DNA of 64,000 nt. It comes from Escherichia phage nieznany. Positions 766-18,879 of the stretch are shown here, in pieces (the first letter of the stretch is position 1; each line of letters starts with the position of its first letter). The stretch lies in sequence record NC_052659.1, one strand, 5' to 3'. Under the pieces are notes generated by a model that saw only the letters and a program-made list of their open reading frames with translations, had not been told where the DNA came from and ran no database searches. The position numbers were made by a program, and so were the translations under genes.

Positions 766-861
766 TGAGAACCCAATCCTGGCAACAATTGTTCTGATTT
801 TTGCCATGTGTGTGGTTCACGATGTTCTGGTAAGCTACTTTGACAACAAAGGAGGTAAGAA

Positions 862-2586: not shown

Positions 2587-2597
2587 GGAGAGAAAAC

Positions 2598-2813
2598 ATG
2601 AAAATCAAAGATCTGCCAGTAGGCACTAAGTACAAACTAGCTCAAGCCCCACGTATGGATACGACCAGTACGTTTATCGTCGTGGATATTAAGTACATGC
2701 AGGATACTTTCGGCATCCTTGAAGATGAAGTTGGTATGAGCTATTGTATTGACAAGAACGAAATCGTTCCGTGGCGAGGTCACGAACTTTGTGAATGCAT
2801 CATTGTAGAGTAA
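2598..2813 (+). CDS. hypothetical protein
   Basis: AGGAGAG RBS; 71 aa. Confidence 0.4.
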   Translation: MKIKDLPVGTKYKLAQAPRMDTTSTFIVVDIKYMQDTFGILEDEVGMSYCIDKNEIVPWRGHELCECIIVE

Positions 2814-2829
2814 AACAGAAGGGGGGGCT

Positions 2830-2961
2830 ATGTACGTTATCTGGGTAGATGAAGGTGATGGGTGGTATATCTATAAAGAAACAGGCCATTGGCCTGATGT
2901 GCAGAAAGCCCTTGACAGTTTCGATTATTGTTACTATGATTCACACTTTGAAGACGAATAG
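2830..2961 (+). CDS. small hypothetical protein (43 aa, below ORF-track cutoff)
   Basis: GGGGGG RBS then ATG 2830; in-frame to TAG 2959-2961. Confidence 0.3.
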   Translation: MYVIWVDEGDGWYIYKETGHWPDVQKALDSFDYCYYDSHFEDE

Positions 2962-2975
2962 ACAGGAGAAATAAC

Positions 2976-3143
2976 ATGTGGAATAAACCCGCACAAGGTC
3001 AACTTCCTTACCCACATCAGGTGGTGATTGCCATCACACCAGAAGGAAAAGAAGTAGAGATGTATCGTGTCGGTAATCTTTGGTTCCCTGCTGGGGACAG
3101 ATGTTATGTCTACTGGACACCTGAAATGTGGAGGGCTAAGTGA
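2976..3143 (+). CDS. small hypothetical protein (55 aa)
   Basis: AGGAGAAATAAC then ATG 2976; stop TGA 3141-3143. Confidence 0.3.
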   Translation: MWNKPAQGQLPYPHQVVIAITPEGKEVEMYRVGNLWFPAGDRCYVYWTPEMWRAK

Positions 3144-3490
3144 AGGATAATATTTGCTACCAACATCTCTATTGGATTCATGACGAAGAGACTTACGCTC
3201 AACGTGTTATCGTATGTGCGGCTAATAAATACATCCTGACAACTGGGGAAGAACTGGTCGTACCTTGTGTCAGACACGCAAATCCGGTATTATCCCAGCA
3301 GATAAAACTTCTAATGGACGCTGGTTTGTTGTCTAAGTCCTATTGTCATCCAGATGATCAAGGGTTTATTGACCAATATTATAATTGGTGGAATCGTGTA
3401 GATGCATTTATTATTGCAGATCATGCTAATCAAATTGATTATGACAGAAATGGTCATTATCGTGAGTTATTTAGTGAGGGGCTATATTAA
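3140..3490 (+). CDS. hypothetical protein
   Basis: 116 aa ORF, GTGA overlap with upstream. Confidence 0.4.
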   Translation: MKDNICYQHLYWIHDEETYAQRVIVCAANKYILTTGEELVVPCVRHANPVLSQQIKLLMDAGLLSKSYCHPDDQGFIDQYYNWWNRVDAFIIADHANQIDYDRNGHYRELFSEGLY

Positions 3491-3984
3491 TGAGAGATAT
3501 TCTTACAGAACTTGGAGTAAACCACTGTAGTCATAAGCTTGAAGATGACTGGTTAGATTTTTATGCTATTAATTACGCTCAAGCACGTAAGAGCTTTAGT
3601 GAAGCTTTATCTCATGTTCAAGAGTTATTTAATGTAAAAGAAGATAAGGTATTGGCTAAAACATACACAATCAGTTCTTATGATTACACTAACCCTGAGT
3701 TTATGTTAAAATTTTGGAGAGATGTTAATCAGTTCATTAAAGAAAATACATCAAAGGACTGGAGTTTTTCCTATATTACTATTGAAGATACTGAAAAATT
3801 CCTAGACCAATATGATGATTTTGGTGAAGATTGTAAAGAAATTAGCGTTTATGCTTATGTTAAAAGCTTTGACCAGTTTACATCACAAGAGCAAAAAGAT
3901 GCAATCAATACAATGAGGTATTATGAGATGAAGCTGAAAGAAGCAAAAGAAGATTTAGATCGCTATAAAAGGGTGGCATATTAA
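3490..3984 (+). CDS. hypothetical protein
   Basis: 164 aa ORF; TAATG overlap. Confidence 0.45.
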   Translation: MRDILTELGVNHCSHKLEDDWLDFYAINYAQARKSFSEALSHVQELFNVKEDKVLAKTYTISSYDYTNPEFMLKFWRDVNQFIKENTSKDWSFSYITIEDTEKFLDQYDDFGEDCKEISVYAYVKSFDQFTSQEQKDAINTMRYYEMKLKEAKEDLDRYKRVAY

Positions 3985-4538
3985 TGTTTGTGACGAGTGA
4001 CCGCCATTTCTGGCACGATAAAGTTCTTGATTTTCAGGCGCATACCCGCCCATTTTCTAGCTTGGAAGAAATGCACGAGGCGTATATTAAAGAGTGGAAC
4101 GCCTGTGCAACTAAACCTGGTGTTAAAATGTATCACTTGGGAGATTTCAGTTTTGGTCTTGAAGAACAGACAGAAGAGATCTGCAAGCGTTTGCAAGGTG
4201 ATATCACCTTCATCGTGGGGAACCATGACCGCAGCTATACCCGTTCCGTAATGGAGAAGTACGGGCGTGTTGTTTGGTACGACGAAGTGAAATACCAGAA
4301 ACATTTCTTTGTATTGAGTCATTATCCTATGCTTACTTGGAACAAATCTCATAAAGGAAGTATTATGCTTCATGGTCATGAACATGGGAATCTTGTTCAT
4401 TTAGAGCACGAACGTGGAAAAACTATGGATGTTGGTGTAGATGTTCATGGTCGTTTCTTACATTTTGATGAAATCATTGAAGTGATGAAAGACCGTCCTA
4501 TGCGTATGGATCATCGTAAATTTAGATCGGAGGAATAA
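3984..4538 (+). CDS. calcineurin-like metallophosphoesterase
   Basis: Motifs DRHFWHD, GNHD, GHEH typical of metallophosphatase fold. Confidence 0.6.
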   Translation: MFVTSDRHFWHDKVLDFQAHTRPFSSLEEMHEAYIKEWNACATKPGVKMYHLGDFSFGLEEQTEEICKRLQGDITFIVGNHDRSYTRSVMEKYGRVVWYDEVKYQKHFFVLSHYPMLTWNKSHKGSIMLHGHEHGNLVHLEHERGKTMDVGVDVHGRFLHFDEIIEVMKDRPMRMDHRKFRSEE

Positions 4539-4680
4539 TAATGGTAACAATGTATGTACTGTTTGCAATTTTTTATTCTGGTAATGGTAATTCAACTTAT
4601 CAGGCAGAGTTTAACTCGCAAGGGGCTTGCATTATGGCGTTAGAGGAAGGTAAGCGTGTGAAGATTTTTGACCGTGGCAT

Positions 4681-4944
4681 GTGTGTGCCGAAGGGGTGAA
4701 AATGAATATTCCAGATGATTTTTATACCCACGAGAACTCGTGGAGAAAGGCTCTTGAACGTCTTATCGAACTGGAGCCTGTAACTGGTGAACCTGACGAA
4801 GATAACCGTGGGTTTTGGGAACATGAATTACGTGCATTCAATCACGCTTATGAGCAACTTCATAAGGGTTGTCCCCATGATGGTGCTACCTACTATGATA
4901 TGAGTGGGCGTGAACGCTGTGGAATGTGTGGAGGTGATATTTGA
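4681..4944 (+). CDS. hypothetical protein (C-terminal CxxC)
   Basis: 87 aa ORF. Confidence 0.35.
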   Translation: MCAEGVKMNIPDDFYTHENSWRKALERLIELEPVTGEPDEDNRGFWEHELRAFNHAYEQLHKGCPHDGATYYDMSGRERCGMCGGDI

Positions 4945-5126
4945 GAAAACTTATTGTACCATGGCTCTATTGCCCTTGTGGGAGCAGTAAGATTGAAGTA
5001 GAGACTGAAAAAGGTGATGAGTTATACCTCTATTATGGCGACAAAGTGAAATGCCTTGTTTGCGGAAATGAAGGTGAAATCGAAACAGATGATTGCTGCG
5101 CGTATGCAGTGTGGGAGGATGAATGA
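4941..5126 (+). CDS. small zinc-ribbon-like protein
   Basis: CPCG...CLVCG cysteine pairs; 61 aa. Confidence 0.35.
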   Translation: MRKLIVPWLYCPCGSSKIEVETEKGDELYLYYGDKVKCLVCGNEGEIETDDCCAYAVWEDE

Positions 5127-5347
5127 GTACAGCTATTTATGTAAGAGGCGTGAGTGAACACGAGCAATGTCTTTTCTCTTTTGGGGAAGGTGTAGAGATT
5201 GAGGATATGTATCAAGAGATTTGCGAAGTCTTGGATAATGAAGGATTCACTATTGTAAACTCTTTTCTTGTTACATCATCTGAATATTTAGAGGTTGATT
5301 TAACACAGATGATGTTTAGTGTCCAAGAAACAGTTTTTGATTGGTAA
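5123..5347 (+). CDS. hypothetical protein
   Basis: 74 aa ORF with ATGA overlap. Confidence 0.35.
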   Translation: MSTAIYVRGVSEHEQCLFSFGEGVEIEDMYQEICEVLDNEGFTIVNSFLVTSSEYLEVDLTQMMFSVQETVFDW

Positions 5348-5356
5348 GGAGAAATA

Positions 5357-6472
5357 ATGCTGCAATTAAATCCTACATTGTATGGTAAAGACACCAAAGG
5401 TAATATTAAAGAATGGTCTGTCTATACGGATGGTGCAACTGTTACAGTTGGTCATGGTCGTCTTGGTGGGAAGATTACTACGAAATCCTATGAAGCTGAA
5501 GCAAAAAACATTGGTCGTTCCAATGAAACAACACCGGAAGAACAAGCTGAACTTGAAGCTTTTGCCAAATGGACAAAACAGTTAAAGAATGGCTATTATA
5601 AAACAAAAGAAGAAGCTGAAAACCATGTTCCTTCCACACCAATGAAATGCCAGGATTATAAAGATTATCCTGAAAGGGTTGTGTTCCCTGGTTATGCACA
5701 ATACAAACTGAACGGGTTACGTTCTATGATTAACATGAAAGGGGAGTGTTTATCAAAAGCTGGGGAAGTGTACAACCTGCCACCTCATTGGAAAGGTATT
5801 CCAAACTTTATTAGTGAAGTTGTTGGTCATCCTCTTGATGGTGAAGTGTTTGCTGGGTTAGGTGTCCTTAGTCTGCAACAAATTAACAGTGCTTGGAAGA
5901 AGCATAATGCAAATACACCTTTGCTGAATTATTACGTATACGATATTCCAGTTCCAGGTCTACCGTTTGAAAAACGTGTTGATGCTCTTGCTGCTCTTAA
6001 GGCAGTAGTTGAAGATTATGGTCTTGACGAGCTTATTTGTGTAGTTCATACAGAGTATATTGAAAACCAAGAACAGTTTGATGCTTTCTATGAAAAAGCT
6101 TTACTTGAGAAAGCTGAAGGTGTAGTATATCGTAATGCTCACGGAGTTTACGAATTTGATAAACGTTCTTATGACGTTATTAAACGTAAGCCTCGCCACA
6201 CCCTTGAAGTTAAAGTAATAAATTCAAAAAGTGATAAAAATGGTGATGGAGTGTTGACAGGTGAGATGGAAAATGGTAAAGTAGTCGAATTCTTAATGCG
6301 TAAAGATGCTCATGAGACTATCAATTATCGTAAAGCAGAGAATGCTTCTACCTTGATTAATCAGTTCGTTGAAATAGAGTATGAAGAATTTTCAGATGAA
6401 GGTATTCCAACAAAACCTGTTGGTGTTCGTATTCGAGAAATGATCCCAGGCACTTGGGAACCAGCAGAATAA
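5357..6472 (+). CDS. ATP-dependent DNA ligase-like nucleotidyltransferase
   Basis: Motif I variant KLNGLR (KxDGxR with D->N), motif III LDGEVF, motif V EGVVYR, KRK near motif VI; 371 aa like small phage ligases. Confidence 0.6.
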   Translation: MLQLNPTLYGKDTKGNIKEWSVYTDGATVTVGHGRLGGKITTKSYEAEAKNIGRSNETTPEEQAELEAFAKWTKQLKNGYYKTKEEAENHVPSTPMKCQDYKDYPERVVFPGYAQYKLNGLRSMINMKGECLSKAGEVYNLPPHWKGIPNFISEVVGHPLDGEVFAGLGVLSLQQINSAWKKHNANTPLLNYYVYDIPVPGLPFEKRVDALAALKAVVEDYGLDELICVVHTEYIENQEQFDAFYEKALLEKAEGVVYRNAHGVYEFDKRSYDVIKRKPRHTLEVKVINSKSDKNGDGVLTGEMENGKVVEFLMRKDAHETINYRKAENASTLINQFVEIEYEEFSDEGIPTKPVGVRIREMIPGTWEPAE

Positions 6473-6525
6473 GGAGGAAAAATGTTCTTAGCTTATCATT
6501 GTGCAAAATACCTGGAGGCATTTTT

Positions 6526-6708
6526 ATGATAATTTTAGCAACAATTATTATGATGTTGATAGCAATTGCTATTATAATTCTGGCATCTTTTCCGGCGGAT
6601 AAATGGTATTTCAATATTCCACGTATGCTTGTTTTCGGTTTCGCAGGGATTTACATGGGTGAGTCTGTAGTAAATATTAGCAACTTTCTAGAAAGCTATT
6701 TTAAATAA
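6526..6708 (+). CDS. small membrane protein
   Basis: GGAGG then ATG 6526; strongly hydrophobic MIILATIIMMLIAIAIIILA. Confidence 0.4.
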   Translation: MIILATIIMMLIAIAIIILASFPADKWYFNIPRMLVFGFAGIYMGESVVNISNFLESYFK

Positions 6709-6717
6709 GGAGTTATA

Positions 6718-7443
6718 ATGATCGAGAATTTTTTTAAAGATATTAAATTCGATACTGAATTTTTCAAAAATGCAGCAAAGCACGTAATTGATTGGAATGC
6801 CAAAGCACGAGGTGGTGAACAACCTGAATTCACTCAAGAGCTATTTATGTCCCAAATCGGGTTCGTTCGTGAAGAGCTTAAAGAGTATGAAACAGCCGCG
6901 AAAGTAAACGATCATGTAGAACTCTTGGATGCAGCAGCGGATATTTTTGTAGTATCCAGTTATCTTACTTACATGTTCTTTGGTGAAGAACATACGATGA
7001 ATTTCTTGGACTATGCTGTAGGCGATGTTTTTACTCCAACTGTGTATACTGATTTTGATGCTTTGGAACAAACATTTACAGAGCCAGTTCAAATGGCACT
7101 AATGGCTGCTGGTATTATGCGTATGTCTCGTGACACTCTAATCCGTTCAAAATATCCAGAAAAGAAAGTTATTAAAGAGGTATTGAAAAGTAATGATTCC
7201 AAGTATCCAACTAAACAACAGTTGCTGAAAACTTGGAAAACTTCGGATATCGATTCAGCCATTGCACAAGAATGCGCTGCAATTGAAGAACGAAATGCCA
7301 ATCGTCCAGAAGGGGCATACACTGGTGTTCATGCTGTTTATAATGAAAAACAGAAAGTGTATGTGTTCTTTGATGATAAAGGTAAGATCATGAAACCATC
7401 GACCTTTGTCAAACCTAATATTGCAGGTATTATTAATAAGTAA
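6718..7443 (+). CDS. MazG-like nucleoside triphosphate pyrophosphohydrolase
   Basis: EE-x-E...ELLDAAADIFVV helical motif typical of MazG/dUTPase-like all-alpha NTP-PPase. Confidence 0.5.
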   Translation: MIENFFKDIKFDTEFFKNAAKHVIDWNAKARGGEQPEFTQELFMSQIGFVREELKEYETAAKVNDHVELLDAAADIFVVSSYLTYMFFGEEHTMNFLDYAVGDVFTPTVYTDFDALEQTFTEPVQMALMAAGIMRMSRDTLIRSKYPEKKVIKEVLKSNDSKYPTKQQLLKTWKTSDIDSAIAQECAAIEERNANRPEGAYTGVHAVYNEKQKVYVFFDDKGKIMKPSTFVKPNIAGIINK

Positions 7444-7499
7444 TGTTGTAAGCCGCCCTTTATGGGCGGTAATGTGAGATGTATTAAATAGGAGGAAAC

Positions 7500-8378
7500 A
7501 TGTTTGTAAAATCTTTTAAATCCGCTCTGCCTATGGTTGTTGGTGACAATGCTTCTGTAGCATCCCTTAACAGCATTACAGATATTCCTCTGGAATTTGT
7601 AACAGCAGAAGGCTCCCAGTCACACACTATCGGTCTTGTTCGTTTCGAAGATGACTCTAAATTTGTAAAAGAGTTTTCAGATCTTGAACTGCTTAATGTA
7701 GGTCAATCTGTGAAGAAGGTAGATAAAAAGAAAGTTAAACGTATTCTGAATGAACGGCTAGAAGAAATGCGTCAGGACATGGAGAGCGAAGGTAAAGAGT
7801 TTTATGTCGATAAAGAAGTAGTCAAAGCAATGAAGGAAGATATTGAATTTGCACTATTGCCTGAAACAGAACCTGAAGATTTCTTTAACTATGTTGTCTT
7901 GGATAAAACTACGAATCTTCTTTATGTTCTTAATGGAAGTAAAAAGGTTGCAGAAGAGATTACTTCTTTCCTCCGTTCCGTTCTGGGGACTTTCCCTTCG
8001 GTAGGTTTTAGTGTGCATGAAGAAGCTATTGTAAAAGGTTTTGGTGAATTGCTGGAGAATCACGAAGCAGATCGTATTACTCTCGGAAATTATATCAAAA
8101 TGGAGGATAGCGAGGGCGTTGTTGTTTGGAGTAAAGAATCCCTATACGAGTCTAAAGCTGTCGAACTAAAAGAAGATGGTAAAGATGTTGTTGCAATCGG
8201 TCTTGAATATGACGGTGTTGTAGATTTCGTAGTGGATAAAGAGTTTAAACTTTCTAAACTACGTTTTCCGAAATATTTTGCAGACGAAGAAGGCAGTATT
8301 GAAGCTTCAGTCCTTCTGTGCTTCAATGAGATTCGAGGTCTGATGGAAGATTTAACCAAAGCAACAATCCTTAAATAA
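7500..8378 (+). CDS. hypothetical acidic protein
   Basis: 292 aa ORF, GGAGGA RBS. Confidence 0.5.
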   Translation: MFVKSFKSALPMVVGDNASVASLNSITDIPLEFVTAEGSQSHTIGLVRFEDDSKFVKEFSDLELLNVGQSVKKVDKKKVKRILNERLEEMRQDMESEGKEFYVDKEVVKAMKEDIEFALLPETEPEDFFNYVVLDKTTNLLYVLNGSKKVAEEITSFLRSVLGTFPSVGFSVHEEAIVKGFGELLENHEADRITLGNYIKMEDSEGVVVWSKESLYESKAVELKEDGKDVVAIGLEYDGVVDFVVDKEFKLSKLRFPKYFADEEGSIEASVLLCFNEIRGLMEDLTKATILK

Positions 8379-8380
8379 GT

Positions 8381-8440
8381 TCTTGACTTGCGGGATTAGT
8401 TATGATATTATGCCTACCTACTTAATGAGGTAGGCTTTTT
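8381..8440 (+). promoter_or_regulatory. sigma70-like promoter (TTGACT-17-TATTAT) followed by stem-loop GCCTACCT..AGGTAGGC + T-tract
   Basis: Seen in sequence; same promoter plus stem-loop architecture as the minus-strand cassettes at 50-57 kb. Confidence 0.45.
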
Positions 8441-8450
8441 AGGAGGCGTT

Positions 8451-8660
8451 ATGAAAAAGATTCTGACAGTCGTTCTTTTAGCTTTTAGTTTCACAGTAGC
8501 AGCAGGTCAAATTACTTTAATCTTGTCTGATTCTGAAGTTAATGGCAATACAAAATATTGCTACTATTCTAACGCTAACCAAGATGAAGTTATAGCAATC
8601 CCGAAAAGTCGTCAATGTCCGTATACTAAAACATTCTCAACAGAGGATGACGATGAATAA
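8451..8660 (+). CDS. small secreted protein (signal peptide)
   Basis: N-terminal MKKILTVVLLAFSFTVAAG hydrophobic signal; 69 aa. Confidence 0.45.
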   Translation: MKKILTVVLLAFSFTVAAGQITLILSDSEVNGNTKYCYYSNANQDEVIAIPKSRQCPYTKTFSTEDDDE

Positions 8661-8672
8661 TTAGGGGGAAAT

Positions 8673-9791
8673 ATTAGCGGTTATATTTTAATTAAACCTG
8701 AAGATCTTCATTTATATGTCAACGAAGAAACAATAGCTGCAATTGATTATGATCAGATCGCTTTCCAAGCAGCGTCTGCATTAGAGAAAAGAACAATCAT
8801 TGCGAAGCACATCCCTTCAGGTGCTCAAAAGGAATTTAAAAATAAGACAGAGTTTTGGGGTAAAAGCAAGACTAAAATTGGAGGTTGGCTAGGAGATACA
8901 AATGCAGAAAGAGCCTCCAAAAACAAACGTCCCTTCACAAAGGAAGAGTTCGAAATCATTGATAAGCAATACCCGCCAGAAGATATCGGACACACCTTCC
9001 AAGCAGCTAAAACAAAAGTCTTAGGTATTCTAAAACATCTACGTTTAGAAAAATATTGCGGAGTTATTGGCGTAGGAAAAACTTTCAGACACGCCTTCAA
9101 AATGCCTGTAGAATATAAATCTGAACGATTAGATATCAAACCACTTCAGCTTTCAGAAACCAAAGATTATCTTGTGGAGTTCCACAATGGTGATGTTGTT
9201 ACTGTAATAGAAGCTGATGATGAGTTAGAGAAGTATGGTTTCCAAGGTTATAAAGATTATAAAAGGACGGGTAAATTTTCTTATATCGTAGTATCTATAG
9301 ATAAAGATAGTTTACATACTCCTAGTATCCTTTTTAATTTCTACAAAGAGGATGGAGTATTTAAAAATCCAGATATAATTCTTATTGACGAGTCTATTGG
9401 CGATATATGGATCGTAGATAAAGGTAAAAAGAAAGAAGTTAAAGGTTGGGGCAGTTACTGGTTAGCATATCAGATGCTAATGGGAGATAAAACAGATAGT
9501 ATCCGACCTTATCAAGATTTTGATATTAAGTTCGGAGATATTACTTGTTTTAATCTTCTTTCAGCTTGTAAAACTCAAGCAGAACTTTTCCAAACAGTTA
9601 AAGATACTTACTACTCATGGTTCCCAGAGGGTGTTAATTTTACTTCTTGGGATGGAGAAGAAGTCCATATGACAACAGATGAATGGATAGAAACAATTTT
9701 CCAGTTGGTATACATGAAACGCTGGGATAATGACGATACAACATTTGAGAGTATGCTTCAGTCATACATCTCACAACAGGAGGCAGAGTGA
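8673..9791 (+). CDS. rnh: RNase H / 5'-3' exonuclease (FEN family, T4 rnh-like); start codon uncertain (no in-frame ATG/GTG/TTG between 8661 and 9101)
   Basis: IAAIDYDQIAF, IEADDEL, VVSIDKD, LMGDKTDSI match the FEN/T4 RNase H motifs recalled from memory; N-terminal catalytic region lies upstream of the first ATG (9102); ATT at 8673 after GGGGG is a candidate start. Confidence 0.55.
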   Translation: MSGYILIKPEDLHLYVNEETIAAIDYDQIAFQAASALEKRTIIAKHIPSGAQKEFKNKTEFWGKSKTKIGGWLGDTNAERASKNKRPFTKEEFEIIDKQYPPEDIGHTFQAAKTKVLGILKHLRLEKYCGVIGVGKTFRHAFKMPVEYKSERLDIKPLQLSETKDYLVEFHNGDVVTVIEADDELEKYGFQGYKDYKRTGKFSYIVVSIDKDSLHTPSILFNFYKEDGVFKNPDIILIDESIGDIWIVDKGKKKEVKGWGSYWLAYQMLMGDKTDSIRPYQDFDIKFGDITCFNLLSACKTQAELFQTVKDTYYSWFPEGVNFTSWDGEEVHMTTDEWIETIFQLVYMKRWDNDDTTFESMLQSYISQQEAE

Positions 9792-10747
9792 GCAGATTAA
9801 CAGAAGAGCAGAAAGCAGATATCCTTAGTATGAGTGCAGAGGGTATGTCTTCTCGTAATATTGCAGCAATTGTTTTAGGTAGTCCAACAAGAAAAAGCAC
9901 AGTGAACGATTTCCTTGCACGATTTGGAGCAAGTAAACAAGAGCCAGTTAAAAAGAAACAACCCGTTATTAAAATTATTGATGTTGAAACTGCACCAGAG
10001 ATTGCATATACTTTCCGTCGATTCAAAGCCTTCATTTCTCCAGATCAAGTAATTCGTAGGGGTTATTTGTTATCTTACTCTTCTGCTGACCTATATACTG
10101 GTGAAGTGGAAGGTAAGAACTTGTCTTCTTATCCTCTTTTTGATATTGATCATACAGATGATTGGGAGCTTTGCCAAGATCTTTGGAACCTTCTGAATGA
10201 GGCAGATGTAGTTGTGGCACACAACGGGTATAAGTTTGACCGTGCATACATTAACCAACGATTTGCATATCACGATATGGCTCCTCCTTCTAATTATGTA
10301 GTTGTTGATACATTGAAGGCAGCTAAGAAACAATTTGCACTTCCTTCCAACTCCCTTAAAGAAATGGGAGCATATTTCGAAACAGAAAGTGAAAAACTGG
10401 ATAACGAGGGGTTCCCTTTATGGAAAGCATGTTGTGAAGGTGATCGTGATGCTTTTGAACGTATGCAGATTTACAATGATGGTGATGTTGTTTCACTCCG
10501 TGATTTGTATATGAAAATCCTTCCGTGGATTCCACAGCATCCTAACTTATCCGCTTATTACCCAGATGAGAAGGTCCGTTGTTCTCGTTGTGGCAGTGAT
10601 CACGTTCACGTTGTTACTGGTAAACAATACCACACTGCGGTAAGTTCTTTCGATATCATTCGTTGTGAATCTTGCGGAGGTTTGTCACGTAGTAGAGCAA
10701 ACACCAGATCCAAGGATAAACGAGCAGCAACTATCATTGGAATCTAA
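9788..10747 (+). CDS. DnaQ-like (DEDD) 3'-5' exonuclease with N-terminal HTH-like region and C-terminal Cys4 cluster
   Basis: Exo motifs IIDVETA, VAHNGYKFD, YNDGD; CSRCG...CESCGG; GTG start overlapping rnh stop. Confidence 0.5.
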   Translation: MSRLTEEQKADILSMSAEGMSSRNIAAIVLGSPTRKSTVNDFLARFGASKQEPVKKKQPVIKIIDVETAPEIAYTFRRFKAFISPDQVIRRGYLLSYSSADLYTGEVEGKNLSSYPLFDIDHTDDWELCQDLWNLLNEADVVVAHNGYKFDRAYINQRFAYHDMAPPSNYVVVDTLKAAKKQFALPSNSLKEMGAYFETESEKLDNEGFPLWKACCEGDRDAFERMQIYNDGDVVSLRDLYMKILPWIPQHPNLSAYYPDEKVRCSRCGSDHVHVVTGKQYHTAVSSFDIIRCESCGGLSRSRANTRSKDKRAATIIGI

Positions 10748-10753
10748 TAATCA

Positions 10754-10806
10754 GGGAGCTTATTGCTCCCTTTTTTATTGACAAAAATTTGATATTAGTG
10801 TATACT
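10754..10806 (+). promoter_or_regulatory. terminator hairpin (GGGAGCTTATTGCTCCC + T6) immediately followed by promoter TTGACA-17-TATACT
   Basis: Seen in sequence. Confidence 0.5.
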
Positions 10807-10833
10807 CTGCTAACCACAATAAAAGGAGGAAAT

Positions 10834-11061
10834 ATGAGCATTACATTAACAGGTAACGAAATTTTCGAACTGTTTGAAATGTTAGGTTTGAACTATACCA
10901 TCAATAAAGATCCAGATCTTCTTGACGTTGAAATAACAATCCAAGAAGATACAGCAATTTATAATGACGATGGTGATATTATCTATCAAGGTAGGGTAGC
11001 TTATTATGCAGACTACCCAGAAGAAGGTGCAGTAGGAATTCAGGAGGAAAATTATGTCTAA
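10834..11061 (+). CDS. hypothetical protein
   Basis: AAAGGAGG then ATG 10834. Confidence 0.4.
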   Translation: MSITLTGNEIFELFEMLGLNYTINKDPDLLDVEITIQEDTAIYNDDGDIIYQGRVAYYADYPEEGAVGIQEENYV

Positions 11062-11455
11062 TGCTTTTGATAATCAGGTTGACGGTGATCACTACACAAA
11101 AATGGCAATGCAACCTATTGAACTAGCTTATTTGGTTGGTGGCACACCTTGTTTTTGCAAATTGGCAAAATATGCAACACGTATTAAAGGTGAACGTCAG
11201 ATTAACCTAGATAAAGCTATTCATTGTATTGAACTAGAAAGAACCCTTATGCAAAATAACACGTATATGGTTCGTGAAAATTATCCATCTATGACAAATG
11301 CAGCTAAACATGATCAAGCTATGCTTCTTATTGATTTCTTCACAAAAGATCCTTTAATACGAGTAGCACTGAAACACATGTATAACTCTTCTTATGTAGA
11401 TGCAATCGAAGCTATTAAACAACTTAAGGAACGTATTAGTGGCGAGCAATACTAA
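11054..11455 (+). CDS. hypothetical protein (DUF3310-like, tentative)
   Basis: GDHY...MQPIE motif resembles phage DUF3310 family from memory. Confidence 0.3.
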   Translation: MSNAFDNQVDGDHYTKMAMQPIELAYLVGGTPCFCKLAKYATRIKGERQINLDKAIHCIELERTLMQNNTYMVRENYPSMTNAAKHDQAMLLIDFFTKDPLIRVALKHMYNSSYVDAIEAIKQLKERISGEQY

Positions 11456-11543
11456 ACAATATGGAGCAGGAGAAGTTTATAAAATATTCAACCGAAAAGG
11501 TGATAAACTTTTACTAACTTTGACTATTCCAGAAACAATGTGC

Positions 11544-11572
11544 AAGGCGGGGTTAGACCGCCTTTTGTTTTT
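11544..11572 (+). terminator. intrinsic terminator-like hairpin AAGGCGGGGTTAGACCGCCTT + T-tract
   Basis: Seen in sequence. Confidence 0.5.
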
Positions 11573-11622
11573 TAAACATAATATCCCACCAGGGGAATAT
11601 ACAGCTAAAAAGGTGAGCAATA

Positions 11623-12198
11623 TTGGCAGGTGAACCAAAAATAATGTGGGGTGAAGGAACACCCTGGAAAACACAAGCTGAATTTTATACTTATCTTAGG
11701 GGATGTTTTAGAAAAGCATGGATGAGACACCCTAATAAAATTAAGGTTATCAATGCAAGGCGTTTTAAAGTTGATCGCGTAGATAAAGACGGCAATGTAA
11801 TGATAGACAAGAAAACTGGAAAACCAAAACAAGTTTGGAATTGTGAGTGCGAAATATGTGGACATAGAGGAGGAATGAAAGACTTCCAAGTGGATCATAT
11901 TCACGCAGCAAAACAACTTCAATGTTTTGAGGATATTCCCCTTTTTGTTTTCCGTTTAATCTATGTGAAAGAAGAAGATTTGCGCATGGTTTGTAAATTG
12001 TGCAACTCTATTCTTGCTTATGCAGATAAACAAGGTATATCTTTTGAAGAAGCGAAAGCTGAAAAAGAAGCAATAGCTTTGTGTAGAGCTAAGAAAGATA
12101 AAGCTTGGTTGAAGAAGCGTAAAATAGAACCTGAAAGCACAGTAGCGAAACGCCGCAAACAAATAGTCAAAATCCTATTGCAGGAAATTGAAAGTTAG
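11623..12198 (+). CDS. HNH-like nuclease domain protein
   Basis: CECEICGH...QVDHIH...KLCN pattern compatible with HNH/EndoVII zinc-binding nuclease. Confidence 0.35.
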   Translation: MAGEPKIMWGEGTPWKTQAEFYTYLRGCFRKAWMRHPNKIKVINARRFKVDRVDKDGNVMIDKKTGKPKQVWNCECEICGHRGGMKDFQVDHIHAAKQLQCFEDIPLFVFRLIYVKEEDLRMVCKLCNSILAYADKQGISFEEAKAEKEAIALCRAKKDKAWLKKRKIEPESTVAKRRKQIVKILLQEIES

Positions 12199-12234
12199 TA
12201 TAAGATAACTATACTAAAAGAGAGAGGAGGTTTT

Positions 12235-12843
12235 ATGCAGATAGTATGTGATTGGGATTTAGTTGTGGCTCCATTAGATGTTGCTTGGTTAGAATGGTTG
12301 AATAAGATTAGTGGACTTGGTGTTAAGATAGACACATTCACAAAAAATGCAGACTATGATCTTACCAACTACTTTCCTGGTTTCAGGGAGGAGTTCAATA
12401 TAGATCCTTACGGATTTCTGGATAATCCTCATCTCTATGATACAATGGGTTTTGTTCCAGGTATGCCAGATTTCTTAAAGTATGTTTCAAGGAAAGGTAG
12501 CAATCTTTTGATCGCAAGTGTGACAAAAGGTGGTCACTTAAGTTCTAAACATAAGCATGTTTTAAGAACATTAGATACGATTGATTTTAGCAAAGGATCT
12601 GGTAACGGCTTTTTTGCTACGAAAGAAAAATACTTATTGCCTTGTGATATAGCAATAGATGACAGGGCTGATAACCTACTATATTTTCCAGATGAAGTGG
12701 TTAAAATATATTTTAATACGCCTTATAAAGATAACCATCTAGAAGAACTAAAGAAAAAACCAAATGTTGTGATCACAGGTTTAGAAGATCAGTGGCTAAC
12801 ATGTTTGGATGTTTTTAACACTTTGAACAATTTTAAAAACTAA
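12235..12843 (+). CDS. HAD-family 5'(3')-deoxyribonucleotidase-like protein
   Basis: N-terminal CDWDLVV (DxD) and IAIDDRADN resembling NT5C-type nucleotidases. Confidence 0.4.
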   Translation: MQIVCDWDLVVAPLDVAWLEWLNKISGLGVKIDTFTKNADYDLTNYFPGFREEFNIDPYGFLDNPHLYDTMGFVPGMPDFLKYVSRKGSNLLIASVTKGGHLSSKHKHVLRTLDTIDFSKGSGNGFFATKEKYLLPCDIAIDDRADNLLYFPDEVVKIYFNTPYKDNHLEELKKKPNVVITGLEDQWLTCLDVFNTLNNFKN

Positions 12844-12852
12844 GGAGAAAAA

Positions 12853-13851
12853 ATGACAAAACAGATTTCGGCTAGTATTATTGCGCATTCCATCACTGAA
12901 GACGGAAAAGAGATTGTAACTTTTGAACTAGAATATCCACGTATTATTCATTCAGAATTGATGACTCACCGCCTGTTCAGTCGTAATGCTGCTTCTAGCC
13001 GTGCTATACCTGTTAAAACACTGATTGAAATGGTGCGAAATCAACCTGCTCGTCCTTATCGTTTTGGGGCTAACCAACCTGGTATGCAGGATAAAGGTGT
13101 TGATCATGACGCTCTTATTGATGCAGGTTATACTGCTCAAGAGTGGTGGGATCTTGCCGCGCTTAGTGCAGCACGTTTTGCAGAAGAATTCTCTTTGGCA
13201 GGGTACCACAAACAAGTTGCAAACCGTCTTCTGGAACCTTTCCAACGAATTAAAACAGTTCTGACAGCAACAGAATATGAAAATTTCTGGTGGCTACGTG
13301 ATGACAAAGAAGCCGATCCTACTATCGAAGCTTTGGCTAAAGAGATGCACAAAGAGTATGAAGGATCTACACCAGAAGTGCTGAAACCAGGGCAATGGCA
13401 CACACCTTATGTAGACCATTTCTATGATACTATTGGCACAGAAGGTGACGATCATTTTGTTTTTGGTGGATACTACGTTCAAGATGAATCTGGAGAAGTC
13501 GTTGTGCTTACTTTGGAAGAAGCCAAAGCTATTTCAGCTTCGTGTTGTGCACAGGTTAGCTATCGTCGTTTAAATGCAACTAAAGATAAAGCTTTAGATA
13601 TCTATGGTCGCTTGCTGACTGGGCGCAAGGTTCATGCTTCTCCGTTTGAACATCAAGCCACTCCAATGCAAGAAACATGCGAACAATATGGAGAGAACTG
13701 TTTTGAAGATTTGTTTATCAATGCTCCTTGGGATTTTAACTCTTGGGAACCAGGTATTACCCATGTAGATCGTAATGGTAAGTTTTGGTCTGGCAATTTC
13801 AAAGGCTGGATTCAACATCGTCAACTTTTAACAAATCATACTAAATGGTGA
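12853..13851 (+). CDS. thyX: flavin-dependent thymidylate synthase ThyX
   Basis: ThyX-type signature HRLFSRNAASSRA (RHR-x7-S-like); 332 aa. Confidence 0.7.
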   Translation: MTKQISASIIAHSITEDGKEIVTFELEYPRIIHSELMTHRLFSRNAASSRAIPVKTLIEMVRNQPARPYRFGANQPGMQDKGVDHDALIDAGYTAQEWWDLAALSAARFAEEFSLAGYHKQVANRLLEPFQRIKTVLTATEYENFWWLRDDKEADPTIEALAKEMHKEYEGSTPEVLKPGQWHTPYVDHFYDTIGTEGDDHFVFGGYYVQDESGEVVVLTLEEAKAISASCCAQVSYRRLNATKDKALDIYGRLLTGRKVHASPFEHQATPMQETCEQYGENCFEDLFINAPWDFNSWEPGITHVDRNGKFWSGNFKGWIQHRQLLTNHTKW

Positions 13852-13865
13852 TCTGTTTAAATAGT

Positions 13866-13940
13866 TATTGACTTTAGTATTAGTTTTAGTATAATATAGC
13901 ACAATACTGGGAGGAGGTGAGTCCTCCCATTCAAAATGAA
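13866..13940 (+). promoter_or_regulatory. promoter TTGACT..TAATAT followed by 5' stem-loop GGGAGGA..TCCTCCC
   Basis: Seen in sequence. Confidence 0.4.
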
Positions 13941-13949
13941 GGAGAAAAT

Positions 13950-14360
13950 ATGTCATTAGTAAATACTACAACTTGGGCTACCGTAAGCATGTCTACTGTA
14001 ATGTCTACCCCTATCTGGAAACTAGAATCAAATAAACACAATGGCAATATCCCACACGAGAAACAAAATGCTGTTATTAGAGCGTCGCTTGTAATGCTGG
14101 GTATGGCTGAAGATTCACACTATTCTGTTGAGCGTAATGTGAATATCAGAAGCAATAACGATAAGCGAGTAGTGTTTGCAAATACAACGCTTTTCACTTT
14201 CCCTGTTTCACCTAATTGTGGTTTTAAACGAATCTATCAAGAAAATGATATTTTTCATTTTGGTGATGAAGAATTTACAGGTTGGGGTGCGTCACATATT
14301 AAGATGGATGATTTCGGTAACTCTTATGATCCTGCGAAAGCAGATGATACTAATCAATGA
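13950..14360 (+). CDS. hypothetical protein
   Basis: AAGGAG then ATG 13950. Confidence 0.45.
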   Translation: MSLVNTTTWATVSMSTVMSTPIWKLESNKHNGNIPHEKQNAVIRASLVMLGMAEDSHYSVERNVNIRSNNDKRVVFANTTLFTFPVSPNCGFKRIYQENDIFHFGDEEFTGWGASHIKMDDFGNSYDPAKADDTNQ

Positions 14361-14611
14361 GAGGGACAATGACTGATAATAAATATGAAGGCTGTGAAAT
14401 CGAAGTCTATTTTGATGAAACTGTTGGTTGTAATGTAACTGTAATTCTAGACACTTCAAAACGTTTATCTCCTAAAAGACAAGAAGCAGACCGTCGAGCA
14501 AAAGCAAAAGGGTTTGATGACATAACTCATTTTGAAGGTTTTCTATATGCTAATGGACTTTTTAATGAAATGAAGTTCGGTTATGATGTAGATGTTTTGA
14601 ATATGCATTAA
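14357..14611 (+). CDS. hypothetical protein
   Basis: 84 aa ORF, ATGA overlap. Confidence 0.4.
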   Translation: MRGTMTDNKYEGCEIEVYFDETVGCNVTVILDTSKRLSPKRQEADRRAKAKGFDDITHFEGFLYANGLFNEMKFGYDVDVLNMH

Positions 14612-14627
14612 TAATAGGGAGGAGAAG

Positions 14628-16871
14628 TTGATTCGTTTTGTAACTAAATCTAATGGTAAGACAGAGGAGTTTAATCCAGAAAAACTTCGCAAGTGGTCTG
14701 AATTTGCAGCAGGTAAACTAAACTGGTCTGAAATTGAATTAGAAGCTGTGAAGCGGTGTTATGACGGTGTGTCTACACGTGATCTGCATAAAGCAATGAT
14801 TGCAGCGTGTATTGACAAGAAAACACAAGCTTATAGTGATATGGCAGGAAGACTTCTTCTGGGTATGATTTACAAACAGGCTCATGGGGGATACCACAGT
14901 ATCCCTTCACTGAATACCTTTTATCATGATATGGTAGAACGTGGACATTGGGCTAAAATGGATTATACTGATGAAGAGATCAAAGAAATCGGTAAGATTG
15001 TAAAGCATAATAAAAATCTAACTTATGGTTATTCTGTTTTACGTCAGATGGTAGATAAATATCTTATTCGAGATGCAGTAAACGATGTGGTGCATGAGTC
15101 TCCACAATTTCTTTTCATTGGTATCGCAATGAAGGTTATGGAGATCCAACCAAAAGAACGCCGTATAGAAGATATTAAAAAACTTTATACTTATGTTAGC
15201 GATCTTAAGATTAATCTGCCATCGCCGTATCTGACAACTCTACGAACTCCAATCAAAGGAAGTGCGTCTTGTTGTTTATTCCGTGCAGACGATACGGCAG
15301 AGTCTTTAGCCATTGCTAATTACTTAGCTCATGAGTATACGTTGAATAACGCAGGTATTGGTGTTAATCTTCAAACTCGTGCCACAGGTCAAGGTGTTAA
15401 GAATAATCGTATTATTCATGGTGGTCTTCTTCCGTATCTGAAATGGATGGAAGATAGTGTTGGAGCTTCGAAGCAAGCAAGCCGTGGAGGTAGTGCTACA
15501 GTTACCTTCACCATACTTGAACCAGACTTCGACGATCTGATTCGACTGAAGAATCCAACAACACCTATAGATAAACGAGTAGACAAACTGGATTATTCTA
15601 TTGTTGTTAACCGTTCGTTCTTGCGTCGAGCAGCAAAAAACGAAGATTGGATGTTAGTTAGTTGTGATGATGCTCCTGAACTTTATGAAGCTTTGTATAA
15701 AAGTGAAGAAGAGTTTGATGCAGTTTATGACAAAGTAAGCCGTCGTCGCATTAAGAAAAAATTTGTTAAGGCTCGTGATCTTCTGACAGAGATTATTGTT
15801 CAACGTGCAGAAACAGGACGTATTTACATGTTCTTTGCTGACAACGTTAACAACCATACACCTTTCTTGGATACGGTGTATCAATCAAACCTGTGTCAAG
15901 AGATCTTCTTACCAACTAAAGCTTTCCACAGTATGCCGGATCTCTTTACTGGTGAGAATACAGAAGATCAAGAATTGGCTTTATGCTTCTTATCTTCTAT
16001 TGTTGCTGGTCGTGTCTTACCTGAAGAATATGAGGATGTTGCATACTACACTGTATTGACAATTGACAACGTTATTGAAACAATGGATTATCCATTTAAA
16101 CATAACGAAATAACTGCTAAAGCACGTAGATCTATTGGTGTAGGTATTACAAACTTAGCGCATTATTTGGCAAGTAATTTTGTAAATTATTCAGATGCTT
16201 ATGCTAAAAAATTAATGCATGAACTTGCAGAACGTCATTACTTTTGGTTGGCAAAAGCCTCTCTGCGTCTGGCTAAGGAAAAAGGTAATGCGGAATGGAT
16301 CGATAAGACCAAATGGCCTCAAGGTTGGCTACCAATTGACACTTATGCTAAAACAGTAGATAGTATCGGTAATTTTGATCTTAAAATGGACTGGGAAGGC
16401 TTACGTGCTGAAATCATTGAACAAGGTGGTATCCGTAACAGTGTCTTGGCTGCTATTGCACCTAATGAGTCCAGCAGTTTGGTAAGCAATACTACTAACT
16501 CTCTGTACCCTGTTCGTGATACTATTATGTATAAACAAAGTCAGAAAGGTAGCGTATTATTTATTGTTCCAGACTACGAAAAACTGAAAATGTTTTACCA
16601 GTCTGCCTGGGATACTCCGGCTAAAGATCTTGCAGAAATGTATGGTATCTTTACCAAATTCACGGACCAAGGAATTTCTTGTGATTCTTGGCTAGATTAT
16701 TCTAAATTGGTAGGTGGACGTTTATCAGTGAAAGCTGAGATGCAGTTTATTCTGAATTTTGCTAGATTGGGTGGCAAGTCGTTGTATTACCTTAATAGTA
16801 GAACAAAATCAGCAGATTCTTTAGCACAAGAAGATTCTGAAGACGAAGGGTGTAGTGCCTGTAAAATGTAG
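14628..16871 (+). CDS. nrdA: ribonucleoside-diphosphate reductase large subunit (class Ia NrdA), TTG start
   Basis: 747 aa; N-terminal ATP-cone-like region and overall NrdA architecture; GGGAGGAG RBS. Confidence 0.9.
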   Translation: MIRFVTKSNGKTEEFNPEKLRKWSEFAAGKLNWSEIELEAVKRCYDGVSTRDLHKAMIAACIDKKTQAYSDMAGRLLLGMIYKQAHGGYHSIPSLNTFYHDMVERGHWAKMDYTDEEIKEIGKIVKHNKNLTYGYSVLRQMVDKYLIRDAVNDVVHESPQFLFIGIAMKVMEIQPKERRIEDIKKLYTYVSDLKINLPSPYLTTLRTPIKGSASCCLFRADDTAESLAIANYLAHEYTLNNAGIGVNLQTRATGQGVKNNRIIHGGLLPYLKWMEDSVGASKQASRGGSATVTFTILEPDFDDLIRLKNPTTPIDKRVDKLDYSIVVNRSFLRRAAKNEDWMLVSCDDAPELYEALYKSEEEFDAVYDKVSRRRIKKKFVKARDLLTEIIVQRAETGRIYMFFADNVNNHTPFLDTVYQSNLCQEIFLPTKAFHSMPDLFTGENTEDQELALCFLSSIVAGRVLPEEYEDVAYYTVLTIDNVIETMDYPFKHNEITAKARRSIGVGITNLAHYLASNFVNYSDAYAKKLMHELAERHYFWLAKASLRLAKEKGNAEWIDKTKWPQGWLPIDTYAKTVDSIGNFDLKMDWEGLRAEIIEQGGIRNSVLAAIAPNESSSLVSNTTNSLYPVRDTIMYKQSQKGSVLFIVPDYEKLKMFYQSAWDTPAKDLAEMYGIFTKFTDQGISCDSWLDYSKLVGGRLSVKAEMQFILNFARLGGKSLYYLNSRTKSADSLAQEDSEDEGCSACKM

Positions 16872-16882
16872 TAGGAGAACAG

Positions 16883-17539
16883 ATGAAGAAGGGTAAACGT
16901 AAAGTTACCGTTCTCACAGAGAGGGGAGAAATCCCCTTGATTGTGGATGTTGAACGTAGATTGTGGGAAGGTGGTGTTATCAATGGAAAAAGGGTTAATA
17001 CATTCATAGATCCTTCCTATGCAGCTTGGAAAGGCATGTTTAATCGTGCATATCGTATGGAAAACATTAGACCAGGTTATAAAGATGTTACCGTGTGTGA
17101 TGCTTGGTTCACCTTTTCAAACTTTGATAACTGGTATCAAGAACATAACGTGGAAGGCTTTGTTTTAGATAAAGATCTTGTTCTTGAAGGAAATACTGTT
17201 TACTGTCCTGAATATTGTAGGTTTGTTCCTCCTTACATAAATACACTTTTAAGTTATGCTAAGAGGTATGAAAGAAAATACTTACTAGGAGCACATGTTA
17301 GGAAAGATGGTAAGATTTATGCCAAAGCTTCTGGGAGCAAAGGTAAGCATTTAGGTTACTTCGCTACAGAGGAAGAGGCACACTTCGCTTGGCTAAAGGA
17401 TAAAGCTAAGTCAATCAGGGAAACAGCGGATCGTTACAAAGAGGAAGAACATTTTTATCAAGAGGTGTACAACACTCTTGTAAACAAGGCGGATTTCTAT
17501 TGGCATCTGGCTGAAACAAAAACAGTGTTTCGAGGCTAA
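16883..17539 (+). CDS. homing endonuclease-like protein inserted between nrdA and nrdB (AP2-like domain)
   Basis: Paralog of 1590..2261; position equals that of mobE in T4 (established knowledge). Confidence 0.55.
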   Translation: MKKGKRKVTVLTERGEIPLIVDVERRLWEGGVINGKRVNTFIDPSYAAWKGMFNRAYRMENIRPGYKDVTVCDAWFTFSNFDNWYQEHNVEGFVLDKDLVLEGNTVYCPEYCRFVPPYINTLLSYAKRYERKYLLGAHVRKDGKIYAKASGSKGKHLGYFATEEEAHFAWLKDKAKSIRETADRYKEEEHFYQEVYNTLVNKADFYWHLAETKTVFRG

Positions 17540-17545
17540 ATATAA

Positions 17546-17567
17546 AGGGGCTTCGGCCCCCTTTTTT
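17546..17567 (+). terminator. UUCG-tetraloop hairpin GGGGCTTCGGCCCC + T6
   Basis: Seen in sequence. Confidence 0.55.
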
Positions 17568-17584
17568 ATCGAGGAGAATTTTAA

Positions 17585-18673
17585 ATGGCAGCAATTAATT
17601 TACACAATGAAGTTTACAAAACAGGAAAATATCCAGTATTTTTAGGGGAACAATTAGGGATCTTTGATTCTGTTAACGTAACTTATCCAGAAATGCACAA
17701 ACTCTACAAACTTCAAAAAGCACAAGATTGGGATGAGAATGAAGTCAATCTGGATCAGACACGTAAAGATTTCGTAGCTTGTTCTAAAAACAACTATGAT
17801 GTTATGATTAAAAACTTATCTTTCCAATGGGAAAATGATTCTCTTGCAAAATCAATCATCACTTTGTTCTCTCCATTCTTGAGTAACAATGAAGCCTGTG
17901 CTATGATGATGAAGCAGAGTGAAATGGAAGTTCTCCATGCGTTAACGTATTCTGAAATAATCCGTCAATGTACTCCAGATCCAATCGAAGTCATCAATCA
18001 GATTATGATTAATGATAAAATTTTCAATCGTATGGGTATCATTGCTGATATCATGGGTCAGTTGGAAGAAGCTGGTCATAAGTATGCTCTAGGATTGATT
18101 GAAGCTAACGATGAACTTCGACTGCTGATTCTTAAAGGGATGGTAGCCCTGATTGGGTTAGAAGGTATTCAGTTTATATCTTCCTTCTCTGCTACTTTTG
18201 CTATGGCAGAACAACAACTGTTTGTTGGAGCTTGTAAACTGATCCAGAAAATTATGCTAGATGAAATCTTGCATGTTAAGATGGATTATGCTGTAATTGA
18301 TGCATTGATGCATGACCCAATTTGGCGTAAAATTTACGAAGACAACATTGAAGAGTTGACTTTGATTCTTGACACTGTTGTTGAACAAGAGGAACAGTGG
18401 TGTGACTACCTGTTTAGTGAAGGGCGTTTTATTGTAGGTCTTAACGCCGAATTGTCTAAACAATGGGTTTATTTCAATGCTGCTCCTATTTATCGTCGAT
18501 TGAAAATGAAAGCCAAGTTTAAAGCACCTAAACATAGTCCTTTAGCTTGGATGGAAAAATGGTTGAATCCTGATTTGATTCAGTCAGCAGCCCAAGAGAT
18601 TCAGTTAACTAACTACAAATTAAATTCAGCTAACAAAGATCTCTCTGATGATGAGGAGCTTGACTTCGAATGA
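17585..18673 (+). CDS. nrdB: ribonucleoside-diphosphate reductase small subunit NrdB
   Basis: 362 aa, ferritin-like di-iron protein immediately downstream of nrdA. Confidence 0.85.
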   Translation: MAAINLHNEVYKTGKYPVFLGEQLGIFDSVNVTYPEMHKLYKLQKAQDWDENEVNLDQTRKDFVACSKNNYDVMIKNLSFQWENDSLAKSIITLFSPFLSNNEACAMMMKQSEMEVLHALTYSEIIRQCTPDPIEVINQIMINDKIFNRMGIIADIMGQLEEAGHKYALGLIEANDELRLLILKGMVALIGLEGIQFISSFSATFAMAEQQLFVGACKLIQKIMLDEILHVKMDYAVIDALMHDPIWRKIYEDNIEELTLILDTVVEQEEQWCDYLFSEGRFIVGLNAELSKQWVYFNAAPIYRRLKMKAKFKAPKHSPLAWMEKWLNPDLIQSAAQEIQLTNYKLNSANKDLSDDEELDFE

Positions 18674-18879
18674 TTTTGAAATGTGTTGGTATAATCGACA
18701 CATTCAAAGACGTTTTTGATAAAGGGGCTTCTTATGAAGCCTCTGAAATGAAGAATGGTTTTTGTGATGTATTCGGTAAACGCCTGAAGAAAAACGGCGA
18801 TCCTTGGCTAGGAGTTATGTCTTGTGGTCATATTATTGTAAATGGTGTTGCCAAGTTTGAAATAATTAAGGAGGAATAG
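18670..18879 (+). CDS. hypothetical protein
   Basis: 69 aa ORF, ATGA overlap with nrdB. Confidence 0.4.
   Translation: MILKCVGIIDTFKDVFDKGASYEASEMKNGFCDVFGKRLKKNGDPWLGVMSCGHIIVNGVAKFEIIKEE

Follow-up and report, generated by a model that had tools for sequence, protein, structure and literature searches.

A free-standing IPA-HNH homing endonuclease-type gene, very probably mobile, at the nrdA-nrdB junction of a Phapecoctavirus genome

The gene found between nrdA and nrdB in the window, i.e., the whole 64,000-nucleotide stretch of Escherichia phage nieznany (NC_052659.1) analyzed here, is very probably a free-standing homing endonuclease gene (HEG) of the IPA-HNH type that homes into this junction, as judged from its family, its distribution and its alleles. 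It is a further member of a family already described, and the GenBank records of some relatives already call it 'HNH endonuclease'. For the phage itself the HEG would be an ordinary selfish element; its value is that of a clean natural example, in which a single junction shows the HEG at every stage of its life cycle (from an empty site through an occupied one to internal and near-complete deletion), the end of an essential gene travels with the HEG in recoded form, and transfer between genera is documented.

Results and discussion

Layout of the nrd locus

The window is a segment of a Phapecoctavirus genome (a phAPEC8-like E. coli myophage of the Stephanstirmvirinae), and its nrd region is 98.7% identical to that of Phapecoctavirus DIJ07P2 and at least 98% identical to several other records. 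A free-standing open reading frame indeed exists between nrdA and nrdB exactly as the original prediction had placed it, and the two nrd genes, which it had described as intact, both gave full-length Pfam matches (Table 1); the ATP-cone match of NrdA (E 1e-4, 23 bits) falls under its 25.8-bit Pfam cut-off. The HEG ORF starts 11 nt past the nrdA stop codon and ends 7 nt ahead of the terminator hairpin, which was the sole terminator-like site in 14300..18800. In phages with an empty junction, the alignment placed the same terminator directly behind nrdA, which indicates that the cassette was inserted between the nrdA stop codon and the hairpin. A search for a promoter of the HEG's own returned 15 promoter-like sites against 15.0 expected from shuffled sequences, i.e., none above chance, and the HEG is therefore probably read from the nrdA transcript.

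Table 1. Features of the nrd locus and of the distant paralog, in window coordinates
Feature	Position	Strand	Basis
nrdA, class Ia ribonucleotide reductase large subunit, 747 aa, intact	14628..16871	+	Pfam Ribonuc_red_lgC E 3e-97, Ribonuc_red_lgN E 3e-11
Recoded final nrdA codons (left end of cassette)	16839..16871	+	Seven-allele alignment, allele-specific searches
Shine-Dalgarno AGGAG, 5 nt before HEG ATG	16873..16877	+	Sequence
Free-standing IPA-HNH homing-endonuclease-type gene, ATG start, 218 aa	16883..17539	+	ORF, phrog_953, ICP1 Gp59 homology
N-terminal beta-hairpin segment, residues 1-41	16883..17005	+	Predicted strands 6-12, 15-21, 28-33, 36-41 (model)
Nuclease-like core, residues 40-130: helices, then beta-beta-alpha unit	17000..17272	+	
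AP2-like DNA-binding domain, residues ~133-175, three strands and helix	17279..17407	+	Family Pfam matches, profile, model
Intrinsic terminator GGGGC-TTCG-GCCCC followed by T-run	17547..17570	+	Terminator search
nrdB, ribonucleotide reductase small subunit, 362 aa, intact	17585..18673	+	Pfam Ribonuc_red_sm E 6e-33
Distant HEG paralog, 223 aa	1590..2261	+	BLASTP, phrog_953

Membership in the IPA-HNH family

In PHROGs, the HEG protein matched phrog_953 ('HNH endonuclease') with an E value of 2e-56 and the paralog did so with 6e-73, in both cases through the C-terminal half only of this 420-column profile. Pfam and NCBIfam, HNH-type models included, returned no match for either protein. When a family profile of 16 sequences was searched against 1.84 billion cluster representatives (clustered at 50% identity), 39,915 were retrieved at E<=1e-3, and 6,031 at E<=1e-30. 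The phrog_953 scores and the number of representatives at E<=1e-3 place both window ORFs, far beyond chance, among the real genes of this family. Its members are mostly 190-260 aa long, some of them with additional N-terminal DUF723 or DUF4379 zinc-finger modules; in these longer relatives, by Pfam search of family members, the modules precede the region that matches the N-terminal beta-hairpin segment of the window protein.

A tblastn search against phage genomes matched 1,525 records, of which 815 were Vibrio phage; Rheinheimera barbaviruses, Pseudomonas phages and Dickeya Limestoneviruses were also among the matches, and in Vibrio phage ICP1 the match was GP59. By BLASTP, the window HEG and ICP1 Gp59 are 33% identical over 148 aa (E 9e-22) and have the motif LDKD..GN.VYCPEYCR.VP..IN in common. 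Gp59, Gp115-116 and Gp209 of ICP1 are the founders of the IPA-HNH family of HEGs, defined by an atypical HNH domain that is invisible to Pfam HNH_3 and by a C-terminal AP2 domain; 18% of the members adjoin ribonucleotide reductase genes, and the genes are found at boundaries of genetic exchange (Barth et al. 2023, PMC10448857). On the strength of these similarities, the window HEG and its paralog are both clear IPA-HNH members. Like the ICP1 proteins, the window HEG has the LDKD..Y.PE.C..P..IN core and, by family-level evidence, a C-terminal AP2-like domain, is free-standing and adjoins essential genes, and its core goes unseen by Pfam HNH_3. It differs from them in its host lineage (Stephanstirmvirinae coliphages) and in its short N-terminal beta-hairpin segment, and also in that one site can be read directly here in its empty, occupied and decayed forms, as can the linked recoded nrdA end. 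Our literature search found no published biochemistry for any IPA-HNH member.

As a separate observation, ORF014 of Dickeya phage LIMEstone1 (L014 2221..2793) was also identified as an IPA-HNH member (31% identity, E 2e-22). It is located between two DNA topoisomerase II subunit genes, and is missing from the 11 free-standing HEGs in the LIMEstone1 paper.

The AP2-like domain

The original prediction had read an AP2-like DNA-binding segment in the protein and had named HNH_3, AP2 and NUMOD as the domain models relevant to it. Neither HNH_3 nor a NUMOD module was detected in the window HEG, and Pfam AP2 (PF00847) did not match the window HEG protein either, but it did match 15 of 40 family members, with a best E value of 1e-9. 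In four family members that were scanned singly, the AP2 scores lay under the Pfam cut-off, and by the family profile these matches coincide with residues 133-175 of the window protein. Searched against the PDB, the family profile found plant AP2/ERF domains (WRI1, TEM1, ERF096, AtERF1) as five of its six best matches, at the same positions and with E values of 0.03-0.3. Lastly, the AlphaFold model (pLDDT 87.8) has three strands followed by a long helix at the AP2-like location. Since the Pfam matches in the family, the profile matches in the PDB and the topology of the model all agree, the AP2-like segment predicted for the window HEG is taken as real, though it is below threshold in the window protein itself.

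A divergent nuclease-like core without the canonical histidine

An alignment of 57 family members revealed 11 invariant positions in the core, namely R55, Y66, W75, F81, W84, D96, K97, D98, Y107, C112 and N120, and two more, G158 and A166, in the AP2 part. The position of the canonical HNH histidine is occupied by Lys97 in 57 of the 57. For comparison, the I-HmuI sequence was checked against PDB 1u3e and a 51-sequence NUMOD4/HNH_3 alignment was built, in which H75 of the I-HmuI family is invariant; D74-H75 of I-HmuI thus stands against D96-K97 of the present family.

This substitution bears on the reading of the protein as a canonical HNH_3 plus AP2 endonuclease of the I-HmuI/MobE-like kind that has simply diverged too far for Pfam, which we consider highly unlikely. 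I-HmuI and the other HNH_3-AP2 enzymes (His-Me finger group 2; Magnani et al. 2004) have a layout in common with the IPA-HNH proteins, in that both join a nuclease core to DNA-binding modules of the AP2 type and belong to phage-borne homing elements. HEGs that pair HNH with AP2 have been described before (PMC10448857, PMC5714182), and by eye the stretch FVLDKDLVLEGNTVYCPEYCRFVPPYIN resembles VVDHKDGNKDNNLSTNLRWVTQKIN of I-HmuI in the D, the GN and the last N. However, the window HEG has no detectable NUMOD module, the histidine is replaced in all aligned members, MobE has no similarity to the protein, and a ~35-residue insert with the invariant W, F and W, missing from I-HmuI when compared by eye, precedes the motif. 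When the 57-sequence family was aligned by hhalign with the 51-sequence I-HmuI/HNH_3 profile, either in full or trimmed, the probability of a relationship was 0.2-1%, i.e., at most 1%. Given this result, homology to HNH_3 is undetectable, and the nuclease-like core is best described, from its alignment, as a divergent His-less 'IPA-HNH' type.

No nuclease came up in the PDB when it was searched by sequence with the protein alone, with the whole profile or with a profile of the core; the last of these gave nothing but chance matches, to deoxycytidine kinase and ferritin. The predicted fold of the core, on the other hand, appears to come closest to that of PacI, an HNH enzyme that lacks the histidine (His-Me finger group 20; PDB 3m7k/3ldy). 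The His-Me finger group without histidine has PacI as its prototype; in PacI, Asp and Asn hold a single metal ion and a tyrosine in the interstrand loop serves as base or nucleophile (PMC5714182, PMC4081073). In the family, D96/D98, Y107 (in the loop between two strands) and N120 (in the helix) are invariant, a pattern that fits the Asp, Tyr and Asn of PacI. As PacI appears to be the closest match to the predicted fold, an Asp/Tyr/Asn active site is suggested in the HEG core. The two Cys4 zinc sites of PacI are not kept in the HEG family, where C112 alone is invariant, C72 is nearly so, and there is no Cys4 pattern; moreover, the core-profile search of the PDB detected no sequence similarity to PacI. 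PacI further differs from the HEG in being a homodimeric 8-bp cutter that has no AP2 domain and is not encoded by a mobile gene. Because the Cys4 sites are absent and similarity is not seen at the sequence level, we advance only tentatively, and at somewhat less than even chances, the proposal that the core is perhaps a His-less nuclease of beta-beta-alpha-metal fold, akin to PacI, with Y107, possibly aided by Lys97, in place of the histidine.

If this were true, His-Me catalysis by tyrosine, for which a single rare restriction enzyme is the only precedent to date, would define a major class of homing endonucleases that has gone unrecognised; the IPA-HNH core has no Pfam or NCBIfam model despite ~40,000 matching cluster representatives. 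The PacI-like fold hint names D96, K97, D98, Y107 and N120 as targets for mutation.

The missing histidine, with Lys97 in its place, and the lack of any matching nuclease model would also suit a different reading, namely that the protein is HEG-derived and domesticated, a catalytically dead DNA-binding protein (such as an nrd regulator of the AP2 type or a factor that excludes competitors) that spreads only by ordinary recombination. Some His-Me fingers without the histidine, SMAD MH1 for one, do no more than bind DNA (PMC5714182), and Barth et al. warn that homing is not to be inferred from sequence alone (PMC10448857). We nonetheless judge this alternative to be improbable. Even among very divergent members, D96, K97, D98, Y107 and N120 do not vary, which speaks for catalysis and not for binding alone; the phages can do without the gene, as most relatives lack the HEG and two have deleted it; and the HEG has crossed genera together with a recoded end of its target gene, which is a signature of active homing.

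States of the junction and the recoded end of nrdA

Among close relatives, the nrdA-nrdB junction exists in four states. It is empty in tuntematon, with a 44-nt spacer, and occupied in the window, in G1 and in VEcB, the last of which belongs to another genus (Justusliebigvirus). In ZCKP1 the HEG is internally deleted, and in DE16 approximately the first 21 nt of the HEG ORF are left, with the start codon changed from ATG to GTG. A comparison with relatives that lack the insertion, which the original prediction had pointed to, was made by allele-specific searches: 49 records covered at least 80% of the empty-junction query (35 full matches among the matches listed), 15 records fully matched the occupied junction, and three contained remnants.

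The match of each allele type to the other type stopped at window position 16840. Both the searches and a seven-allele alignment showed that all occupied and remnant alleles, and no empty one, have a recoded stretch of 31 nt at the end of nrdA, which differs from the empty alleles by 11-12 substitutions and a 3-nt indel. The C-terminus of NrdA reads ..EDS-DGGCEACKM in the empty and ..EDSEDEGCSACKM in the occupied alleles, each directly before the stop, and the C-x2-C motif is kept. The cassette is thus ~705 nt long (~16841..17545) and comprises the recoded last 10 nrdA codons and stop, the Shine-Dalgarno sequence and the HEG ORF. The earlier description of the case as intergenic homing rather than an intron agrees with the presence or absence of the gene at this site and with the intact nrd genes, but the cassette is not purely intergenic, since it includes the end of nrdA.

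The designation of the gene as homing-endonuclease-type was borne out by the recoded nrdA end, by the decayed copies in DE16 and ZCKP1, and by the near-identity of the cassette across genera. Between the window and VEcB, nrdA and nrdB are ~78% identical in nucleotides, yet the region 16828..17527 is 94-100% identical; in amino acids, the HEG is 98.2% identical, NrdA 86.5% and NrdB 84%. Two metagenomic relatives with 89% identical NrdA have HEGs at the same junction that are 62% and 48% identical, and the similarities of HEG and flanks are therefore incongruent in both directions. The intact HEG copies have a dN/dS of 0.06-0.18, which indicates purifying selection. Mobility of the HEG is well supported by these sequence comparisons.

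The same data bear on the alternative that the gene is not mobile at all and is an accessory gene inherited from the ancestor of the subfamily and since deleted in most lineages. Deletion derivatives do exist, and homologs of 48-62% identity are present at the same junction in more distant relatives, as such a history would have it. However, the empty sites have a different nrdA 3' end and hold no remnants, unlike the true deletions of DE16 and ZCKP1; the similarity of the HEG is at odds with that of its flanks both ways; and the nearest relative of the window over 16.5 kb is without the HEG. We regard an ancestral, immobile gene as very improbable, and a mobile HEG as the far better reading of the junction.

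The nearest relative in question, the HEG-less tuntematon, has one mismatch to the window over 97..16657 (16.5 kb). From 16658 rightwards, the window is 1-5% diverged from tuntematon, and no database record comes nearer than ~98.5%. The window genome is a recombinant with a breakpoint ~180-210 bp upstream of the HEG cassette; since the near-identity to tuntematon ends at 16657, the HEG is located at a boundary of recombination, in line with the description of IPA-HNH genes by Barth et al. (PMC10448857). In 16658..16865, the window and tuntematon differ by 26 substitutions, which were considered as one HEG-linked co-conversion tract; this was dropped once phAPEC8 was added: the patch 16694..16781, with 14 substitutions, is specific to tuntematon, and 16839..16871 alone is strictly HEG-linked. 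As an almost isogenic HEG-less partner, tuntematon makes a homing cross and the mapping of the target feasible for the IPA-HNH family.

Proposed mechanism of homing

[quoted passage not shown] In a mixed infection with an empty-junction relative, the enzyme would nick or cut in or close to the intergenic site and the 3' end of nrdA in its unrecoded form, and repair by recombination with the HEG-carrying genome would then transfer the cassette, along with markers close to it, to the genome that was cut. The carrier itself would be protected, as the insertion and the silent or conservative recoding would destroy the target site. In the putative active site, Asp96/Asp98 and Asn120 would hold the metal, and Tyr107 in the interstrand loop and/or Lys97 would stand in for the histidine.

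Comparison with T4 MobE and Hef

The original prediction had likened the gene to mobE of T4. The parallel is sound with respect to position, as both are free-standing genes in the nrdA-nrdB intergenic niche, packed tightly behind the nrdA stop and both presumably expressed from nrdA transcripts. It does not extend to the sequence: BLASTP between the two proteins gave spurious 22-residue matches only, and MobE is an unrelated 141-aa canonical H-N-H protein (..ETHHIIPR..N..H..). The two also differ in that MobE cleaves in nrdB, whereas the target of the window HEG would lie at the nrdA 3' end.

In phage U5, the mobE position at the nrdA-nrdB junction is occupied by Hef (PMC2988022). A Hef-like identity of the window HEG was considered through the Hef-like F-LimIII of LIMEstone1, and was rejected, as the two proteins are unrelated (BLASTP E 0.28). 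F-LimIII has a DUF7487 match and weak sub-threshold matches to the Vsr-type MTES_1575, DUF559 and Vsr, i.e., it is of the Vsr/DUF559 type, with no similarity to the window HEG protein.

Other polymorphic positions in the phage group

Within the HEG, the last ~35 codons (17431..17545) contain ~20 substitutions in 115 nt that separate a window/VEcB type from a G1/ZCKP1 type (L002, L003). This clustering of differences suggests mosaic exchange within the HEG itself.

Between the terminator and nrdB, the same junction has another cassette, which is present or absent independently of the HEG. It consists of an ORF of 109-112 aa that belongs to phrog_17458 (function unknown) and has no Pfam match; it was found in G1 (L002 3254..3592), ZCKP1 (L003 2753..3091), phAPEC8 (L016 ~1003..1341) and another relative (L011 4696..5025), and the corresponding position in the window, ~17571..17584, is empty. 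All four combinations of presence and absence of the HEG and of this ORF occur among the relatives. Elsewhere, a metagenomic relative (Logan SRR33371454, L013 570..989) has a LAGLIDADG-type ORF adjoining thyX, a gene that the window lacks at that place; from this comparison, the thyX-adjacent position appears to be another polymorphic HEG site in the phage group.

The distant paralog and a third nuclease-type gene

The second copy predicted at 1590..2261 was confirmed as a family member by BLASTP against the window HEG (30% identity over 196 aa, E 9e-27), and a search of all six-frame ORFs found no family copies in the window beyond these two. The copy had been taken as a sign of spread within the genome; a second member is indeed present, but recent spread does not fit an identity of 30%. 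At this identity alone, the two copies are to be seen as old paralogs, i.e., independent family members that represent separate acquisitions, with no recent duplication in this genome.

Among 74 records that matched the paralog region, only tuntematon (2 records) matched it in full length. The paralog is also present in Klebsiella phage FKP3 (Justusliebigvirus), with ~96% nucleotide identity over most of the region. In other phages the homology stops at 1572, which is 18 nt ahead of the paralog ATG. The 3' ~100 nt of the ORF at 1246..1593 (window 1480..1593) is ~74% identical, by a count from the alignment, to AV126, which has no paralog, versus 96.8% for the left flank as a whole. To the right of the paralog, genes in other phages are replaced or just 70-80% identical. 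By these comparisons, the paralog is sporadically distributed and lies at the edge of a replaced gene block, and its flanks appear to have the same architecture as the nrdA 3' end, with a diverged flank of the upstream gene.

Two neighbors of the paralog may be mentioned here. The upstream ORF 1246..1593 is called 'transposase-like' in GenBank, yet only phrog_6208 (unknown function) lends it support. On the forward strand, the gene at 2206..2586 overlaps the 3' end of the paralog, and its product has a cREC_REC domain (PF20274, a cyclic-phosphate processing receiver domain; E 4e-14); this gene is part of the block that is replaced in most relatives.

A third nuclease-type gene is located at 11623..12198 on the forward strand. 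Its product of 191 aa has a CxxC..DH..CxxC pattern, matches phrog_1985 ('HNH endonuclease') and has a weak match to endonuclease VII. Since close relatives conserve the surrounding region at 99% or more, and several of them have an HNH endonuclease annotated at this place, this is probably a core gene, such as a resolvase, and not a homing element.
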